The translations under genes and the position numbers were made by a program. A stretch of DNA of 64,000 nt from assembly GCA_965204745.1 (NCBI GenBank), contig OZ242010.1, positions 4,768,001 through 4,832,000 on the forward strand, written 5' to 3'. Positions 3,790-33,830 of the stretch are shown piece by piece; the stretch's first letter is position 1; every line of letters starts with the position of its first letter. The DNA is from Candidatus Latescibacterota bacterium (GTDB lineage Bacteria; Latescibacterota; UBA2968). The notes under the pieces are model-generated. The model was not told where the DNA came from and did no database searches. It saw nothing but the letters and a program-made list of their open reading frames with translations.

Positions 3790-3986
3790 GGAGGTGAGAG
3801 GCAAGAGGTAAGGCGCAAGACGTAAGAGGTGAGAAGTAAGAGGTGAGACGTGAGATGCGATTAGCCACGAGCGGGTTACAACTGGCGACAGCCAGTTCAA
3901 AGGCACAAAAGGCACAAAAGGGGTACAACTGGCGATAGCTAGTTCAAAGGCGAGCCGTATGTAGGGGCGATGCCCCGTGCTCGCCC
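3790..3986 (+). repeat. Heptamer tract plus composite REP-like element, copy 1
   Basis: Palindrome AACTGGCGACAGCCAGTT, nonamer GGCACAAAA and terminal GTAGGGGCGATGCCCCGTGCTCGCCC (3961-3986). Confidence 0.85.
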
Positions 3987-4319
3987 AAAGATACAAAGAA
4001 ATCCGCTCGCGAGATAATACTACTTTTTCCACAAAAGAACAAGCCCATCAGTCCTTTTACCTGAATAGCCCTTATATCCCCGACCCTTTAGGGCAAGATA
4101 CGGTTTGGCTCTGCGTAGGCTTTAACCCACTTTTTTACGGTTTGCTTTGTCACGGGGCAAGTGTATTTTCCCCTTGTAGCGAGAGTTGTCGCCTGAAGCG
4201 ATACGGCGTATGACGACAACAAAGCTACGTCAAATCACTCAACTCATGGCCTGGCGATGAGAGGGTCGGCAGAGATGTCGCTAACCGGGATCGTGGGAAA
4301 ATTCTTGAAAGGGCGAACA

Positions 4320-11799: not shown

Positions 11800-11864
11800 G
11801 CGAGCCATACAACTGGCGATTCAAAGGCGAGCCGTGGGTAGGGGCGATGCCCCTGTGCTCGCCC
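11800..11864 (+). repeat. Composite REP-like element, copy 3 (short)
   Basis: TACAACTGGCGATTCAAAGGCGAGCCG followed by GTAGGGGCGATGCCCCTGTGCTCGCCC. Confidence 0.85.
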
Positions 11865-11889
11865 GAAGACACGGCGCATCATGTTCCGA

Positions 11890-11918
11890 TTGACGCCATG
11901 AACGGGAAAGGGTATAAT
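11890..11918 (+). promoter_or_regulatory. Sigma70-type promoter of frdA/sdhA
   Basis: TTGACG-N17-TATAAT, 40 nt upstream of the ATG. Confidence 0.75.
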
Positions 11919-11957
11919 AGGCCCCGTTCTTTGTTAAACCACAATGAAGAGGTATTT

Positions 11958-13664
11958 ATGAACATCCCCAAACACGACGTGCTCTTAGTCGGTGGCGGTG
12001 GGGCCGGGTTGCGCGCTGCTATCGCCGCATCAGAAGCCTATCCGGGCGCGGATATTGGCGTGGTCTCCAAAGTCTATCCCATGCGAAGCCACACGGTCTC
12101 TGCCGAAGGGGGCACGGCAGCGGCACTGCGCGAAGACGACAGCCTTGACCTGCACGCCTACGACACCATCAAAGGCAGCGACTTCTTGGCGGATCAAGAC
12201 GTGGTCGAAGCCTTTGTCAAAGAAGCCGTTGACGAAGTCATCCAACTCGAGCATTGGGGGTGCCCCTGGAGCCGCGACGAAGACGGTCGCGTGAGCGTCC
12301 GCGCCTTTGGTGGCATGAGCGTCAAACGCACCCTCTTTGCCGCCGATAAAACCGGCTTCCACATGCTGCACGCCCTCTTTCAAACCTCCCTCAAATACGA
12401 CGCCATCACCCGCTACGACGAGTGGTTCGTCACCTCGTTGCTCGTCGACGACGGCCGGGTGTGCGGCGTCGCGGCCCTCGACATCCGCTCTGGGGGCATT
12501 TGTGCCATCGCCGCCAAATCCGTCATTCTCTGCACGGGCGGCGCGGGCAAAATTTTTCCATTTACCACCAATGCCGCCATCAAAAACGGCGACGGCATGG
12601 CCCTTGCCTACCGCATTGGCTGTCCCTTGAAAGACCTCGAGTTTGTGCAATACCACCCCACGGGCTTGCCCGGCACCGGCATCCTCATGACCGAAGCCTC
12701 GCGGGGCGAGGGCGGGCACCTCGTCAACAGCAAAGGCGAACGCTACTTGAGTGAATACGTCCCCGGCAAAATGGAACTGGGGCCGCGCGACATCCTGTCT
12801 CGTTCCTTTGTTCACGAACAGGGCAAGGGCAATGTTTTTGAAGGGCCGGATGGGAGCTATGTCCACCTCGACCTTCGGCACTTGGGCGAAAAAGTCATCG
12901 ACGAAAAACTGCCCTTTGTGCGCGAACTCACCCGCAACTACGTCGGCATCGACCCGGTTTATGAACCCATTCCGGTGCGCCCGGTGGTTCACTACTGCAT
13001 GGGCGGCGTGCATACCGACATCCACGGCGCGACGCCCATCTCGGGTCTTTATGCCGCAGGCGAAGCCGCTTGCGTCAGCCTCAATGGCGCCAATCGCTTG
13101 GGGTCCAACTCCCTGACCGAGTGCTTGGTCTTTGGCGCGCGTGCGGGCAAAGTGGCCGCCCAACACGCTGCCGACATCGATTTTGCGGATTCTGGCCTGA
13201 TGAGCAAAATGGCGCAGGACGAGCAACGGCGCATCGAAACCCAGTTTTTTGGCGACAACGGCACCGAGCGCGTGGCCCATATCCGCGATGATCTCCGCAA
13301 AACAATGGAAGAAGGCGCGGGGATTTTCCGCACCGAGGACGCGCTCAAAGCCACCTGCGACACCATTCGCACCCTCAAGGAACGCTATGAAAACGTCGCC
13401 ATAGACGACCACTCGCGCGTTTTCAATACCGAACTCGTCAATGCCCTCGAGCTGGGTTACATGCTCGACGTGGCCGAAGGGCTCGCGCACTCGGCCCTCT
13501 TGCGCCGCGAATCCCGAGGATCGCACGCGCGTTCAGACTGCGAAGAACGCGATGACGAAAATTTCCTCAACCACTCCCTCGCCTATCGCACCGATGGCGA
13601 CCCCCGAATCGAATACCTGCCCGCCACCCTCACGCGCTGGCAACCCGAAGAGCGGACGTATTGA
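11958..13664 (+). CDS. frdA: Succinate dehydrogenase/fumarate reductase flavoprotein subunit
   Basis: GGGGAG FAD motif, [10 protein letters not shown] covalent-FAD histidine, [33 protein letters not shown]. frdA versus sdhA cannot be resolved from motifs. Confidence 0.9.
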
Positions 13665-13718
13665 GAAGCGGTAAGAGGGGAGAGGTAAGAGGCAAGAGGT
13701 AAGATACTCTCTTAAAGG

Positions 13719-14726
13719 TCAAGGGGATTGCGGGGCGATTCGATAGAATTTCTCGCCCTCAAAATCTTGGTCATGCCGCAACATGCCCCAGATTGAATGG
13801 AGCAACTTTCGCATCACCGCAACGATAGCCTGCAAAGGTTTCTTGCCGCGGGCAATGAGTTGGTCATAGAAGGCTTTGACATGGACTTCGTGTCTGATGG
13901 CCACCCAGGCAGGCATATAGAGGGCATGGCGGAGGTACTTATTCCCGGTTTTCGAGATGCGTCTTTGTGGGTTGGCGGTTCCGGATTGTTTGGGTTTGGG
14001 ATCCAGGCCTGCATGTGCGACCCACTGGGGCGGTTGCATCTCCTCAGGCAAAAGGGTCAACTCGGCCAAGAGCCGCAAGGCGCTCGTTTGTGCGATGCCA
14101 GGCGTCGAGCAGAGGCGTTGGTAGGCGCGCTTGAGGGTCTCATCGTGCAAAACGAGATCGAGGGCTTGGTCTTCCAAGTATGCAATCCGGCGTTTGAGGT
14201 GTCGAATATTCACCTGAATATCGCGTGCGATGCGCCGTGTGCTCAGGATGTGGTAGCTTTGCGCGTGGTTGCGGCTCTGTTCACTGATGATCACCTGCTT
14301 GAGTTGGTCAATGCGTCTGGTGAGGGCTTGCAGTTGAAGCCGTTGCTCACTCGGCGCTTGCCAAGGCACAAACGGCATGCGCTCGGCATAATCCATGATC
14401 AACAACGCATCCTTCGCATCCGTCTTGGCTCGTTGCATGCGGGCTTGACCGTACTTGCTCATCGCTTTGGGATTGACGACCATGACCTTTGTGTGGCGAT
14501 GCCGATGCAAGGCCAAGGCCACCCCCAAGCTGTAAAGCCCGGTCGCTTCGAGGCACACAGAGACCATGTGCCCGCCCTTGGTGAGCCACTTCAGCAACCG
14601 CTTATGGGCTTGGGGATCATTGGCAAAGGTCGCTTGCATGACAGCTTGTCCGGGTCTGGACAGGGCAACAGACAACGTGCGGGCACTGACATCAATGCCG
14701 GCGAAAGCGGGTTGAGATTTCGACAT
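13719..14726 (-). CDS. IS110 family DEDD recombinase/transposase
   Basis: GIDVS, CLEATG, VVNP, AKTDAKDA, PGI, GLDPKPKQSG, SKTGNKYLR, AIVAVMRKLL; RBS AGGAGG. Confidence 0.95.
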   Translation of the reverse strand: MSKSQPAFAGIDVSARTLSVALSRPGQAVMQATFANDPQAHKRLLKWLTKGGHMVSVCLEATGLYSLGVALALHRHRHTKVMVVNPKAMSKYGQARMQRAKTDAKDALLIMDYAERMPFVPWQAPSEQRLQLQALTRRIDQLKQVIISEQSRNHAQSYHILSTRRIARDIQVNIRHLKRRIAYLEDQALDLVLHDETLKRAYQRLCSTPGIAQTSALRLLAELTLLPEEMQPPQWVAHAGLDPKPKQSGTANPQRRISKTGNKYLRHALYMPAWVAIRHEVHVKAFYDQLIARGKKPLQAIVAVMRKLLHSIWGMLRHDQDFEGEKFYRIAPQSP

Positions 14727-14794
14727 GGGGGCCTCCTGTGATGAGGGGTTGTAAGGGGTCTGGTGTGCGCTCGAGTTCGATCCCGACCATTGAC

Positions 14795-14960
14795 GCCAAG
14801 TCTACCGGTCTTGTATATGCAGCCTCAAGGGACTTAGATACTCTTCGGCATAGACCCGGCGGTCGGGGGGCCTATCTTACCTACAAGGTCATCGCCTTCA
14901 AGAGGGGCCGGCCTTCCCCGAGCCGGGCATCAAGATGGCTTATCTCGATACGAGGGCGCA
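14795..14960 (-). ncRNA. Predicted IS110 bridge RNA
   Basis: Two stem/internal-loop modules carrying GGCCCCTCT and AGGTAAG (target loop), and AGAGTATCT and ATACAAGA (donor loop). Ends are approximate. Confidence 0.75.
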
Positions 14961-15046
14961 ACTCCTAATTAACCCTTACTTCCAAGATACAAGAGGGGAG
15001 ACAGCCAGCGCGCTGTTTCTCTCAAGTTGTCAGTTGTCAGTTGTCA

Positions 15047-15131
15047 ATGCGAATTAAGCGTTGAATCCATCGCGTATTTGTCTTTTTTGAGGGCGCAAGC
15101 ATTTCACCCTCAAAGGAAGTAGCGAGCACGC
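15047..15131 (+). mobile_element. Solo left end of an IS982-like element
   Basis: Closely similar to the reverse complement of 63302-63383 (ATGCGAATTAAG...CCCTCAAAGGAAG..GAGCACGC). Confidence 0.65.
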
Positions 15132-15175
15132 AGGGGAGTGTGTCACTTGTTCCACTTACCCTTAGGAGGAGATCT

Positions 15176-18100
15176 ATGAGGCGAGTGAGTCTTTTGTTTT
15201 TTGGGTTGATGGTGCTGGTGGCGTTTTCGGCCAGTGCTGTCGTTGCCGGATCGACCGGCAAAATTTCCGGGAAGGTCGTGGATAAATCCACCGGAGAGAC
15301 CTTGCCCGGTGCCAATGTGGTGATCGCAGGTACCACGTTGGGCGCTGTCACCGATGCCGATGGCAATTATTTTGTCATCAATGTGCCGCCGGGGTCATAC
15401 GCGGTCAGCGCGAGTATGGTGGGGTATCACAAGGCGACTCAGGCCAATGTGCGGGTCTTTATCGACCTGACCACAACGGTGAATTTCTCCGGCGAATTTG
15501 GGCTCGTGGAAGAGACTATCGAGTTGGCAGAAATCACGGTCGTTGCCGAACTCCCTGTGGTGCAGCCCGATATTTCGGCCAATGTCGCCAACATCTCGGC
15601 GGCGGATGTCGAAAACCTGCCCCTGACCAGCGTGAACGAAGTCGTGCGCTTAGAGGCCGGGGTCCTGGCCGCCAACAATGGCGACTTGTCGATTCGGGGC
15701 AGCGATTTGAACGAAATCGCCTTTTCGGTTGACGGCCTGTCCATGCGCGACGGGCGCGAGAACGAGCCGTATTCCACGGTGAGTTATACGTCCATCAAGG
15801 AAATGAGCGTGCAGTCCGGCGGGTTCAATGCCGAATACGGCAATGTGCGGTCGGGCTTGGTCAATATCGTGACCAAAGAAGGCGATAAGCGACGCTACAA
15901 CGGCGATGTGTTGCTGCGATACAGCGGCGCGCAACGCGATTATTTTGGCCCGTTGCCGAATCATCCCATGGGCTATTTTTGGCGGCCCTTTACGGATCCC
16001 GCTGTGAAGAACGTGGGCACGCATTCGCCCGAAAGCCCGTGGGATGTGTACACGCGGCAACAGTACGCACACTGGCCCGGGTGGAATACCATCGTGAGAA
16101 ACTGGGCGAGCGCGCCGCAGGATCCGTATCACGGCGTAGGCGTGAAAGACACGGGCGTGGATGAATCGACCTTGCCAGTCGGCGAATTGCAAGTTGACGA
16201 TGCGATAATTACCGAGTTGTTCGCGTGGTATCGGCGCAAGGATTTGGAAGTTCGCAACGCGGATTTCGATATCGACCTGGGCTTTGGCGGCCCCTTGGTT
16301 CCGGGGGTGAGCGACAAACTGGGCGGGTTGCGGTTCTTTGCGTCTGGCAAGCGCGAGCGCAGGGCGTATATGATACCGCGCTCAATCGATCAGTACGAAA
16401 ACGACTGGGGGCGCGTGAAGGTCACGTCCGATATTCGCACCGACATGAAACTGAGCGTCGAGGCGATGGCCGGCGAAGAGTTCGGGTTGAATCCGAACCA
16501 GAGTGGCTTTCCCAATATGTGGCGCGGCAATCAGGAAATGGGGGTCCGTGGCCAAGATGCAATTTGGGCGAATCACGTCCACAACACGCTTCAAATCCAG
16601 CGCAACAACATCGGCCTCAGCTTTTCGCATGTGTTGAGCCCCAAGACGTTTTACGAATTTCGCGTTCAAAGAATGAATTCGGATTACTCGAGCGACCAAT
16701 ATCCAGAGCGCGACCTGACCGCTGTCGAAAAGACCATTCCGCGCAATCCGGATTTTCCCGCGCCCAATCCCTCGCTCCAGGTTTCGGAGATCACGCAGAA
16801 CCACATCGGGCTGACGGCTGCCCCGGACGAGTATTTTATCAAGAATGAGGCTTTTGTCGACGGCCTGTATTTGGGGGGTCACTGGGCGAATAGCCGCGAT
16901 AATTCCGAAGTCACGGCTTGGACGACGCGCTTTGACATTACGAGCCAGCGCAATCAAGTGGCGCAGTTCAAGGCGGGGGTTGAATTGATCGCCAGCGATT
17001 ACGACATCAATCACGAAAATGCACAGCCATTCTTCAAAAACAACGCGGCGCCCAAATACATCTGGCAACGCACGCCGAGGCAGTTCGCGGCCTATTTGCA
17101 GACCAAGCTCGAGTTCAATGCGATGATCGCAAACTTGGGGGTGCGTTGGGATCGCTGGAATGGGGGTGGCGAATGGTGGGTGTACGAAAATTTCTCCAAT
17201 GCGTTTGGGGCGAAGATCGGCAAGGCCAATCTCGAAGAAGCCCTCGACCAGGCGCCTGTGAAGACCTTGTCGTACTTAAGCCCGCGCTTGGGTATTTCGT
17301 TCCCGGTAACAGCGGACAGCAAGTTGTTTTTCAACTACGGGCATTTCCGCCAGATGCTGAACCCGCACAACCTCTTCCTCGTGGATGAGGTGAATACGGG
17401 CGCGGTCTCGCGGATCGGCAACCCCAATCACCCGATGCCGCGCACGATCAATTACGAACTCGGGTTCGAGCAGAATTTGTTCGACCGGTACTTGCTGCGG
17501 CTGAGCGGGTACTACAAGGCCAACGACGACCAGACGAATGACGTGCGCTACACCAATTTGGACCAAACCGTGTCCTACCGCCTGTTTGAACCCCTCAACT
17601 ACGACGATATCCGGGGGTTTGAAATCACCGTGCGAAAGCGCAGGGGCAGGTGGTTTGGCGGGTTCGTCAACTATACGTATATGCAGGCCAAGGACGGCAA
17701 CTTCGGCCGGGACGAGTTGTTTGAAAACCGCTTGTCACAGGCCAATTTCGATGCGACCTCGACGCGGCACTACCAGAACCGGCCCGTCAGCAGGCCCTTT
17801 GGCCGGTTTGGGCTGGAACTCTACACGCCGCGCGACTTTGGCCCGGCTGTCTCGGGATTTTATCCCTTCGGCAAGTGGGATATGTCCTTTGTGGGCAGTT
17901 GGCGCGTCGGGCAATACTTCAACTGGTATGGCCCGGAAGGCGGGGCCATTGCCGGGTTGACGAACAACGTCCAGTACAAGAGTACTCGGACCATCGACTT
18001 GCGCCTGACCAAGCAGTTCGAGTTGATGGGCGTCAGGTCGATGTTCTTTTTGGACATCGCCAATGTGTTCAATCTCAAGCATCTCAATCGAAACTCTGCC

Positions 18101-21898: not shown

Positions 21899-22477
21899 AT
21901 GCATAAACTGATTCTGCTGACAATAGCCGCGTTTTTGATTCTCCCGCCGTCTCTTTCCGCGCAGAACCACTTGTCCCCGTCGCTAGATCCGGATAATGCC
22001 ACAGGCGGTCAAGCGGTCACGCCTGTCAATATCTCTCCCGATCAAGTTGTTTCCATTCTCATGCGGATCGAAGCCAAAATTGACAACTTGGACAAGCGGG
22101 TCGTAAGGCTTGAAGCCAAAGTTGACGACTTGGACAAGCGGGTCATAAGGATCGAAGCCAAAATTGACAACTTGGACAAGCGGGTCACGAGACTCGAAAC
22201 CAAAGTTGACAACTTGGATAAAAAGTTTGACGACTTGGACAAGCGGGTCGTAAGACTCGAAACCAAAGTTGACGACTTAGATGGGCGGGTTGACAATTTG
22301 GGCAATCGACTCGATGGCCTACTATTGATTTTGGTTGCGGGCTTGTTGGGCATGCCGCTTCTCAACAATTGGCTTGAAAAACGAAGGGAAACCAAGCGAT
22401 TGCCGCAAGTGAACAAATCTTCCACGCAACAACCGAGCGGTGTGCGTGTGCCCTCGCGCAGCGAAGTCGAGGTTTAG
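21899..22477 (+). CDS. Signal-peptide, heptad-repeat coiled-coil membrane protein
   Basis: Repeats of (I/L)EAK(I/V)D(N/D)LDKRV encoded by a 42-bp DNA unit, followed by one TM segment. Confidence 0.75.
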   Translation: MHKLILLTIAAFLILPPSLSAQNHLSPSLDPDNATGGQAVTPVNISPDQVVSILMRIEAKIDNLDKRVVRLEAKVDDLDKRVIRIEAKIDNLDKRVTRLETKVDNLDKKFDDLDKRVVRLETKVDDLDGRVDNLGNRLDGLLLILVAGLLGMPLLNNWLEKRRETKRLPQVNKSSTQQPSGVRVPSRSEVEV

Positions 22478-30886: not shown

Positions 30887-30907
30887 CTTCGGCCTCCTTG
30901 TATCTTA

Positions 30908-31013
30908 GGGCGAGCACGGGGGCGTCGCCCCTACACATATCGCTCACCTTTTGTGCCTTTTGTGCCTTTGAACTGGCTATCGCCAGTTGTACCCCGCTCG
31001 TGGCTAAAATCCC
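30908..31013 (-). repeat. Composite REP-like element, copy 4
   Basis: Reverse complement carries the palindrome, the GGCACAAAA nonamers and GTAGGGGCGACGCCCCCGTGCTCGCCC. Confidence 0.88.
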
Positions 31014-33614: not shown

Positions 33615-33830
33615 CAGTAGTTAGTCCGCCCCGCCCGTCCGCCTCCCGAAAGTGAGACGTAAGACGTAAGAGGGGAGAGGGAGAGGCCCACCCACCTACC
33701 CGCCCGCCGCCGGAATGACAAATGGCGGTAGGGTGGAAGCGGGGACTGACAACTGACCGCTGACAACTGACAACTGCCTTTTGCCTCTTACCTCTCCCTT
33801 CTTACCTCTTACCGCCTCTTACCTCTTACC
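33615..33830. repeat. Long heptamer-rich intergenic tract
   Basis: GTGAGAC/GTAAGAC, CTGACAA and CCTCTTA units in both orientations. Confidence 0.8.

Follow-up and report, generated by a model that had tools for sequence, protein, structure and literature searches.

An IS110-group insertion sequence of a Latescibacterota genome that lies in tandem heptamer repeats, and its predicted two-loop bridge RNA

The DNA analysed here, which we refer to as the window, is a stretch of 64,000 nt from the genome of a Candidatus Latescibacterota bacterium (contig OZ242010.1, positions 4,768,001 to 4,832,000 of the forward strand), and it carries on its minus strand an insertion sequence of the IS110 group (Table 1), which genome mapping places at positions 4781702-4782991 of the host genome (G000; 5.48 Mb in one contig). 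The element is intergenic, lying 38 nt past a flavoprotein gene and 147 nt ahead of a gene for a TonB-type receptor, and a period-7 array was found by Tandem Repeats Finder (TRF) at 13666-13704. Its recombinase gene, whose ATG is preceded by the Shine-Dalgarno sequence AGGAGG (14737-14732), encodes a protein that matches the Pfam domains DEDD_Tnp_IS110 (PF01548, E = 4.6e-23, residues 9-151) and Transposase_20 (PF02371, E = 6.6e-20, residues 203-287) and the NCBIfam model NF033542, "IS110 family RNA-guided transposase" (211.9 bits against a cut-off of 140). The nearest solved structures are those of ISCro4 (PDB 9t56, E = 7.9e-41) and IS621 (E = 1.9e-36), and in an alignment to the latter (8wt6) residues D12, E60, D103, D106, and S258 align with D11, E60, D102, D105, and S241, the catalytic residues of IS621 (PMC11208158). 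The open reading frame (ORF) had already been assigned to the IS110 family in an annotation of the window made from its sequence (the initial annotation), and the profile and structure matches bear this assignment out. We consider it very likely that the element is IS621-like and that its 265-nt left end encodes a two-loop bridge RNA that reads a pair of heptamer units.

The host genome contains 52 full-length copies of the element and about 20 fragments, and the ORF of 335 aa is intact in 51 of the 52. The copies fall into subfamily A (8 copies including the one in the window, 100% identical over 1290 nt), subfamily B (39 copies, mean pairwise identity 99.4%), and subfamily C (5 copies, 96.8%), with identities of 96.2% between A and B and 88.3% between A and C. 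As seen in an alignment of the flanks, all 52 copies open with TGTAT[C/G]TTG and close with AGAGTAT-CT; the sequence upstream of the copies and of their relatives diverges right before the shared start of the left end, and relatives in other phyla start with TGTA[TC]CTT after unrelated flanks. The junctions of the window copy read CTCCCCT-CT/TGTATCTT on the left and AGAGTAT-CT/TACCT on the right, the latter as initially annotated, and the CT core stands at every right junction (52 of 52 copies) and at all but one of the left junctions (51 of 52). The termini (TGTATCTT... and ...AGAGTATCT) are not inverted repeats of each other. Because T-CT-T is common to target and donor, the exchange point within these four bases is not legible in the sequence and is placed provisionally, by analogy with IS621. 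Every full-length copy lies in CCTCT-type heptamer flanks, and the DNA past the tract differs from copy to copy, so that the insertions at unrelated sites that the initial annotation had regarded as fatal to its proposal do not occur among them. In a position matrix of the 52 left flanks, CCTCT hardly varies, and C occupies position -7 in 44 copies and position -6 in 43; the right flank reads CT-T[A/G]CCT in 48 of the 52, with the tract continuing in CT. The 14-bp target of the window copy, CTCCCCT/CTTACCT, is exactly two adjoining CTNNCCT repeat units, and the RNA would therefore pick a particular pair of unit variants.

Guides were assigned by the rules described for IS621 (PMC11208160), in which left guides pair with the bottom strand and right guides with the top strand, the core being part of every pairing. 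All four guide strings of the initial annotation are present on the minus strand where it had placed them, three of them as given in Table 1 and the fourth as ATACAAGA at 14816-14809. For the window copy, the left target guide (LTG) matches at 7 of 9 positions, the right target guide (RTG) at 7 of 7, the left donor guide (LDG) at 9 of 9, and the right donor guide (RDG) at 7 of 7. Across the 52 copies, the LTG matches its flank at 7/9 positions in 45, 6/9 in 3, and 5/9 in 4, and the RTG at 7/7 in 29, 6/7 in 19, 5/7 in 2, and 4/7 in 2; in 17 of the 19 cases of 6/7, TGCCT stands in place of TACCT, which puts a G opposite a guide U (a G·U wobble). The donor guides match the ends of the element itself in 51 of 52 copies (LDG 9/9; RDG 7/7). 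If the guides direct insertion, CTCCCCTCTTACCT is the target that the recombinase and its RNA are predicted to accept.

The heptamer tracts offer many junctions that resemble one another, and we counted every NNCCTCT-YNCYT junction in the genome (about 1,600) against the 45 copies that carry the guide pair GGCCCCTCT/AGGTAAG. Junctions of the type CC/TACCT, which match the guides perfectly, are occupied at 20 of 25 sites (80%), and those of the type CC/TGCCT, with the G·U wobble, at 17 of 82 (21%). Occupancy is 4 of 87 at TA/TACCT, and none of the 241 sites of the commonest junction, TG/TGCCT, holds a copy, nor does any of the 121 TG/CACCT or 117 CA/CACCT sites. This shows that occupancy follows guide complementarity, not tract abundance.

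Guides and flanks also change together, both within the genome and across 13 lineages, which is the covariation that the initial annotation had expected of a programmed RNA. Subfamily C has the LTG GGCGCCTCT and the RTG AAGTAAG, and its flanks read CTCGCCT-CT on the left, with CGCCT-CT in three of the five copies, and CT-TACTT on the right in four; the copy at 1297025 has the guides GGTCCCTCT/AGGTGAG between flanks CTTCCCT-CT and CT-CACCT. When the guides of each of the 13 lineages were compared with their own flanks, the mean match was 7.1 of 9 for the left and 6.5 of 7 for the right guide, versus 4.1 and 4.6 with the flanks of other lineages, and in a permutation test none of 20,000 permutations reached the observed total match, although 3 of the 13 lineages are close kin from G000 and the test somewhat overstates their independence. 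In the related genome G091, with the LTG GCTCGCCTCT, 18 of 18 loci fetched are preceded by CCTCT, and 16 of the 18 are followed by CTCCC. In another genome of the genus, G082, the guide is AGAAAAG, and 4 of the 5 right flanks that were read show CT-TTTCT, at sites that are not heptamers, and other lineages show 7/7 or 9/9 guide matches to quite different flanks. The right end and the LDG likewise change together, to AGAAAAC in genome G097 and to AGAGCAT in the gammaproteobacterial relative. Flanks, occupancy, and covariation thus agree with the earlier proposal that the left-end RNA is programmed for CCCCT-CT-TACCT, the heptamer of this genome.

We next turn to the fold of the predicted RNA, for which a structure of 33 pairs was put forward on an alignment of 14 left ends. 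In this alignment, 89.4% of cells are paired, versus 79.5% after shuffling and 26-51% when the partners are slid, the structure having been derived from the first sequence, so that the slide control somewhat favours it. Compensatory (two-sided) changes are seen in 19 of the 33 pairs, and the covariation score of 0.332 (versus 0.146) was reached by 0 of 500 shuffles. The two helices of the target loop are paired in 96.4% and 100% of cells, and AAGC/GCTT and GAGG/CCTC are among the compensatory changes found in them; the GGCC/GGCC stem and the AAGG/CCTT hairpin of the initial annotation are thus present and backed by covariation. Among the donor-loop helices (helices 3-5), helix 4 has compensatory changes in 9 of 14 pairs, and helix 5 has them in 4 of 4 and is 100% paired.

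Table 1. Features of the element, its target, and the related hairpin module in the window
Feature	Positions	Strand	Remarks
IS110-group insertion sequence	13702-14991	-	1290 nt, right-end core CT counted once; limits from 52 genomic copies and relatives
Element termini		-	Left end opens TGTATCTTGGAAG; right end closes AAGAGAGTAT-CT
Left target half and core	14992-15000	-	CTCCCCT 15000-14994, core CT 14993-14992; kept at left junction
Core, right target half, and remaining heptamer tract	13666-13703	-	Core CT 13703-13702, TACCT 13701-13697
Recombinase gene	13719-14726	-	335 aa; DEDD RuvC-like and Tnp domains, by profile and structure matches
Predicted bridge RNA	14782-14977	-	About 196 nt; 5' end guessed from -10-like box, 3' end from closing stem of donor loop
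Target-binding loop module (predicted)	14869-14913	-	Closing GGCC 14913-14910/GGCC 14872-14869; inner AAGG 14898-14895/CCTT 14888-14885
Donor-binding loop module (predicted)	14782-14867	-	Outer CCCGACC 14867-14861/GGTCGGG 14788-14782; long second stem; inner AGTC/GGCT
LTG GGCCCCTCT	14901-14909	-	Sense of left target and core; last 7 nt effective
RTG AGGTAAG	14876-14882	-	Complement of CT-TACCT; followed by AT, candidate handshake dinucleotide
LDG AGAGTATCT	14836-14844	-	Sense of right end and core
RDG ATACAAG	14810-14816	-	Complement of CT-TGTAT (core and first 5 nt of left end)
-35-like TTGACC	13717-13722	-	Right end, over stop codon
-10-like TATCTT	14984-14989	-	Start of left end
Hairpin module	3977-3995 (-), 30899-30917 (+), 11855-11873 (-)		

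Several observations weigh against a bridge RNA that chooses heptamer pairs. The RNA is predicted here from DNA sequence, the sequencing runs listed including none of RNA, and the single-sequence fold of 14727-14990 (minus strand) is no more stable than shuffled sequence (minimum free energy -91 kcal/mol, z = -0.81). A cmscan search of 13400-15300 with E values up to 10 returned five unrelated hits at chance level, Rfam 15 being a collection that may hold no bridge-RNA family. The predicted circle-junction string occurs 0 times in the assembly, and in the contigs of four sequencing runs, which are interrupted wherever the element or a tract is reached, neither a clean circle junction nor an empty site was seen; the joints listed from these runs have sides of 20-28 nt with foreign letters between them, and we take them to be flanks of other copies. 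The first two bases of the LTG, GG, match none of the 52 flanks, and six copies sit at poorer sites, two with the right flank CTCCCGT (4/7) and four with the left flank TACCT (5/9). Further, target and donor share a T at position 7, which lets the base that follows each right guide pair with the substrate of that guide, and pairing of this kind hindered strand exchange in IS621 (PMC11208158). Finally, the guides of one copy, a hybrid at G000:C1:602772-604089 in which a subfamily B body is joined to a subfamily C-like left end with the guides GGTGCCTCT/AAGTAAG, do not fit its own flanks, TCCCT-CT and CT-CACCT. These flanks fit the guides of copy 1297025 instead, which suggests insertion in trans or a later exchange of the RNA module.

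Three other explanations of the locus have to be weighed, the first of which concerns where the element begins. The initial annotation had placed the left core at 14986-14985, giving the target CTTGTAT-CT-TACCT and the donor AGAGTAT-CT-TGGAA, in other words an insertion at a GTATCT site beside the heptamers. GTATCT is indeed present at both ends, either parse removes an exact unit, and some 60 further occurrences of CTCTTGTATCT lie apart from the element and open a separate repeat module. However, the true core lies 7 nt further out: subfamily C has GT (TGTATGT) at the annotated core and keeps CT at the corrected one, and the relatives in other phyla open at the same point after unrelated flanks. 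The annotated CT itself falls inside the -10-like TATCTT of the left end. The counts refute the annotated core, its empty site CCTCTTGTATCTT[AG]CC being found 0 times in the genome, whereas the corrected one, CCCCTCTT[AG]CCT, is found unoccupied 70 times. The guides argue in the same direction, as the left target guide matches at about 3/9 and the right donor guide over only 5 positions in the earlier parse, versus 7/9 and 7/7 in the corrected one, in which ATACAAG complements CT-TGTAT throughout and the left target guide fits its flank. The poor left-guide match to this insertion site, which had been noted as a caveat, arose because the left boundary was off by 7 nt, and it disappears at the corrected boundary; the donor proposed on the earlier basis, AGAGTATCTTGGAA, is likewise wrong, and the predicted circle junction is AGAGTAT-CT-TGTATCTTGG. 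We give the earlier anatomy practically no credence.

The site might alternatively be set by the protein or by an unusual structure of the polypyrimidine repeat DNA, with the guide-like strings incidental or concerned with end recognition only. The heptamer targets are all pyrimidine-rich tandem repeats with the potential to form non-B DNA, one IS110 element is described as needing, besides RNA pairing, a hairpin in the target DNA (10.64898/2026.03.19.712850), and the RNA of the present element is deduced from DNA. Yet a preference for such tracts would not leave their most abundant junctions unused while four-fifths of the perfectly matching ones are filled; single-base changes in the guides are accompanied by matching changes in the flanks, and relatives with other guides occupy non-heptamer sites that fit those guides. 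We regard this explanation as improbable. It is more improbable still that the 52 copies spread between tracts by homologous recombination, gene conversion, or segmental duplication and not by transposition. The tracts do provide homology on both sides, and the hybrid copy at 602772 indicates that recombination between subfamilies occurs; but the junctions are base-exact in 52 of 52 copies, the flanks past the tract are unrelated between copies, and tract homology would not single out one unit pair among about 1,600 junctions. The intact ORFs in 51 of 52 copies and the identity of 8 copies over 1290 nt also speak against it.

With guide-directed insertion of an IS621-like element as the preferred reading, the parts of the locus can be arranged into a tentative cycle. 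The first loop of the RNA would read the target on both strands, CCCCTCT having the sense of the left target and core and AGGTAAG complementing CT-TACCT, and the second loop would read the joined ends of the element itself, AGAGTATCT corresponding to the right end and core and ATACAAG to the complement of CT-TGTAT. By analogy with IS621, the DEDD/Ser recombinase may excise or copy the element as a circle. Joining of the ends at the core would set TTGACC and TATCTT 17 nt apart (18 in subfamily B), and 14 of 14 relatives have a TTGA[CAT] in the right end that lies equally far from the core. No sigma-70-like promoter was seen upstream of the RNA in the integrated copy, the sigma-70 consensus being one that may not be this phylum's. 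The promoter of the RNA may be completed only upon joining of the right and left ends, and the circle would then drive transcription of the RNA and recombine with a heptamer junction that matches, through exchange at the CT core. Such a promoter would resemble that of IS621, for which a -35 box in the right end is described (PMC11208160) and only weak expression of the RNA from chromosomal copies has been reported (PMC13626964).

With G000 counted in both cases, 12 of 168 genomes of the phylum and 3 of 21 genomes of the genus encode the protein, as do one gammaproteobacterial and one Gemmatimonadota metagenome-assembled genome; a tblastn search of plasmids gave 2,386 records, all below 60% identity, the best being a Salinibacter ruber plasmid at 50.8%. 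Contigs matching the unique flanks were found in a sequencing run labelled sponge metagenome. By one marker protein, the two other carriers in the genus are the nearest kin of the host (G091, 96%; G082, 95%; other members of the genus, 92-93%). In G000, TRF detected 3,240 tandem-repeat arrays, of which 1,119 have period 7 and 468 are of the CTCT type, and three consecutive CCTCTYR units occur 625 times in G000 and 296 times in G091, whereas the remaining 19 genomes of the genus have 0-4 occurrences each. Because the carriers G091 and G082 are the nearest kin of G000 and the heptamers are abundant in G000 and G091 only, the element was probably inherited in a small clade and then retuned, with heptamers as the target in genomes rich in them and a different sequence in G082.

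Within the window itself the heptamer tract had been said to occur throughout, which overstates its presence, TRF placing CTCT-type tracts at about four places. Whether such tracts act as a "safe harbour", as had also been proposed, goes beyond the intergenic position of the window copy, and any benefit to host fitness would be conjectural. By a crude measure, the longest stop-to-stop frame across the reconstructed empty sites has a median of 238 codons versus 454.5 at 300 random sites, and by the same crude measure 40 of the 52 insertion sites still lie in frames of at least 150 codons. Three-unit runs of another heptamer family, ACTGACN, number 1,204 in G000, 1 in G091, and 0-62 in the other genomes of the genus; different heptamer families are expanded in different species. 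Short tandem repeats of the window include those at 15025-15046, 33745-33776, and 2186-2219, and longer repeats are found at 22065-22282 (periods 42, 63, and 84 nt) and at 2270-2434 (period 54 nt).

The separate repeat module mentioned above is a hairpin of about 40 nt, TGTATCTT[TC]GGGCGAGCAC..GCATCGCCCCTAC, the first 8 nt of which equal the left end of the element and which mostly follows ..CT. Allowing up to 2 mismatches, it is found 155 times in G000, 215 times in G082, 61 times in G091, and no more than 4 times in any of the remaining 18 genomes of the genus, so that the module-rich genomes are exactly the carriers of the element in the genus. No other IS110-type gene that could be the source of the TGTATCTT-GGGCGAGCAC module was found in G000. 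Among 20 module flanks in G082, 14 end in CT but do not fit the left guide of the G082 element, which leaves a reading as a miniature inverted-repeat transposable element (MITE) unsupported there. The module could be a subclade repeat of the host resembling repetitive extragenic palindromic (REP) sequences, a MITE-like derivative, or a half-site substrate. A wider scheme can be imagined, in which the bridge RNA in this small clade is repeatedly retuned to short repeats amplified by the host (a dimer of specific heptamer variants in two genomes), a fast-slipping microsatellite makes and destroys sites, co-resident subfamilies split the unit variants among them, and the CT-TGTATCTT module is perhaps a non-autonomous partner or half-match substrate; we offer it as a speculation that is unlikely to hold.

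Some individual copies and neighbours of the element deserve mention in their own right. At locus L008 (G000:C1:1121571-1124187), a subfamily A and a subfamily B copy lie head to tail, and a single heptamer unit separates the upstream core from the downstream left end, the younger of the two having targeted the unit that adjoins the right end of the older one. Decayed copies of a fourth subfamily, with a protein about 76% identical, lie at G000:C1:1433011-1433941 and 921765-922196; the guides are GGCCCCCCT/CAGGAAG, and the site, after ..CCATTCCCC-CT, is a non-heptamer target. A broken copy at G000:C1:844887-845541 directly adjoins what looks like a CRISPR array, in which spacers of about 36 nt separate direct repeats of 30 nt (CTTTTAATCGAACCACTATGGAATTGAAAC). 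As to the neighbouring flavoprotein gene (ORF 11847-13664, plus strand, 605 aa; succinate dehydrogenase/fumarate reductase type by its motifs), the true start is probably about 30 codons downstream, since 20 of 20 orthologues from the genus align only from residue 30-34.

Bridge recombinases are under development as programmable genome-writing tools, and natural data on how a guide chooses among near-identical sites are scarce. The present genome amounts to a natural specificity experiment, in which one guide pair faced about 1,600 related sites and filled 80% of those matching perfectly, 21% of those with one wobble, and 0% of the commonest type with two mismatches, and in which sister subfamilies differing by single guide bases occupy correspondingly different sites. 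It also widens the known natural targets of the family from REP-type palindromes to tandem heptamers, and it provides a compact orthologue of 335 aa, with its predicted RNA, from a little-studied phylum. A word search of the literature, which was not exhaustive, found no report linking IS110 elements to heptamers or short tandem repeats, and the target tables of PMC11208160 may list the element or its target.

The anatomy described here is the known IS621-type anatomy, with no new mechanism, and its worth lies in the natural specificity data. As in IS621 of Escherichia coli (PMC11208160, PMC11208158), the recombinase has DEDD RuvC-like and Tnp domains with a catalytic Ser, and the predicted RNA lies in the left end upstream of the gene, the target loop preceding the donor loop. 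In both elements, moreover, the left guides read as the top strand does and the right guides as its complement, with the CT core in all four pairings; the donor has A-T at positions 6-7, and the right target guide is followed by AU. A -35 box (here a -35-like sequence) is present in the right end of each, and the natural target is a repeat of the host, intergenic in IS621, as established with REP sequences, and at the window copy. The resemblance, assessed from published text and a protein alignment, is one between distant proteins, and the whole element gave no DNA match in a blastn search of 5,426 complete E. coli genomes. What sets the present element apart from IS621 is the kind of repeat targeted (a tandem heptamer versus a REP palindrome), the guide positions used (a right target guide pairing over 7 nt, versus 4 in wild-type IS621, and 7 of 9 left-guide positions), the number of copies (52), and the co-residence of several guide variants in one genome. 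The high copy number fits the copy-and-paste model that has been proposed for IS621 in a preprint.

Among other members of the family, ISPpu9 and ISPpu10 of Pseudomonas putida insert in repeated intergenic host sequences described as "safe zones" (PMC12288879, 10.64898/2026.03.19.712850). By these descriptions, their targets are REP hairpins, and ISPpu10 needs a DNA hairpin, whereas the heptamer target has no hairpin of its own. ISCro4, the best solved relative, aligns over residues 7-332 with the same domain order and catalytic motifs, the comparison being one of the proteins. The IS1111 group belongs to the same recombinase family, but its guide RNA lies downstream of the gene and its ends carry subterminal inverted repeats. 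The element described here, with its structured RNA predicted upstream of the gene, differs in this respect from the IS1111 group.

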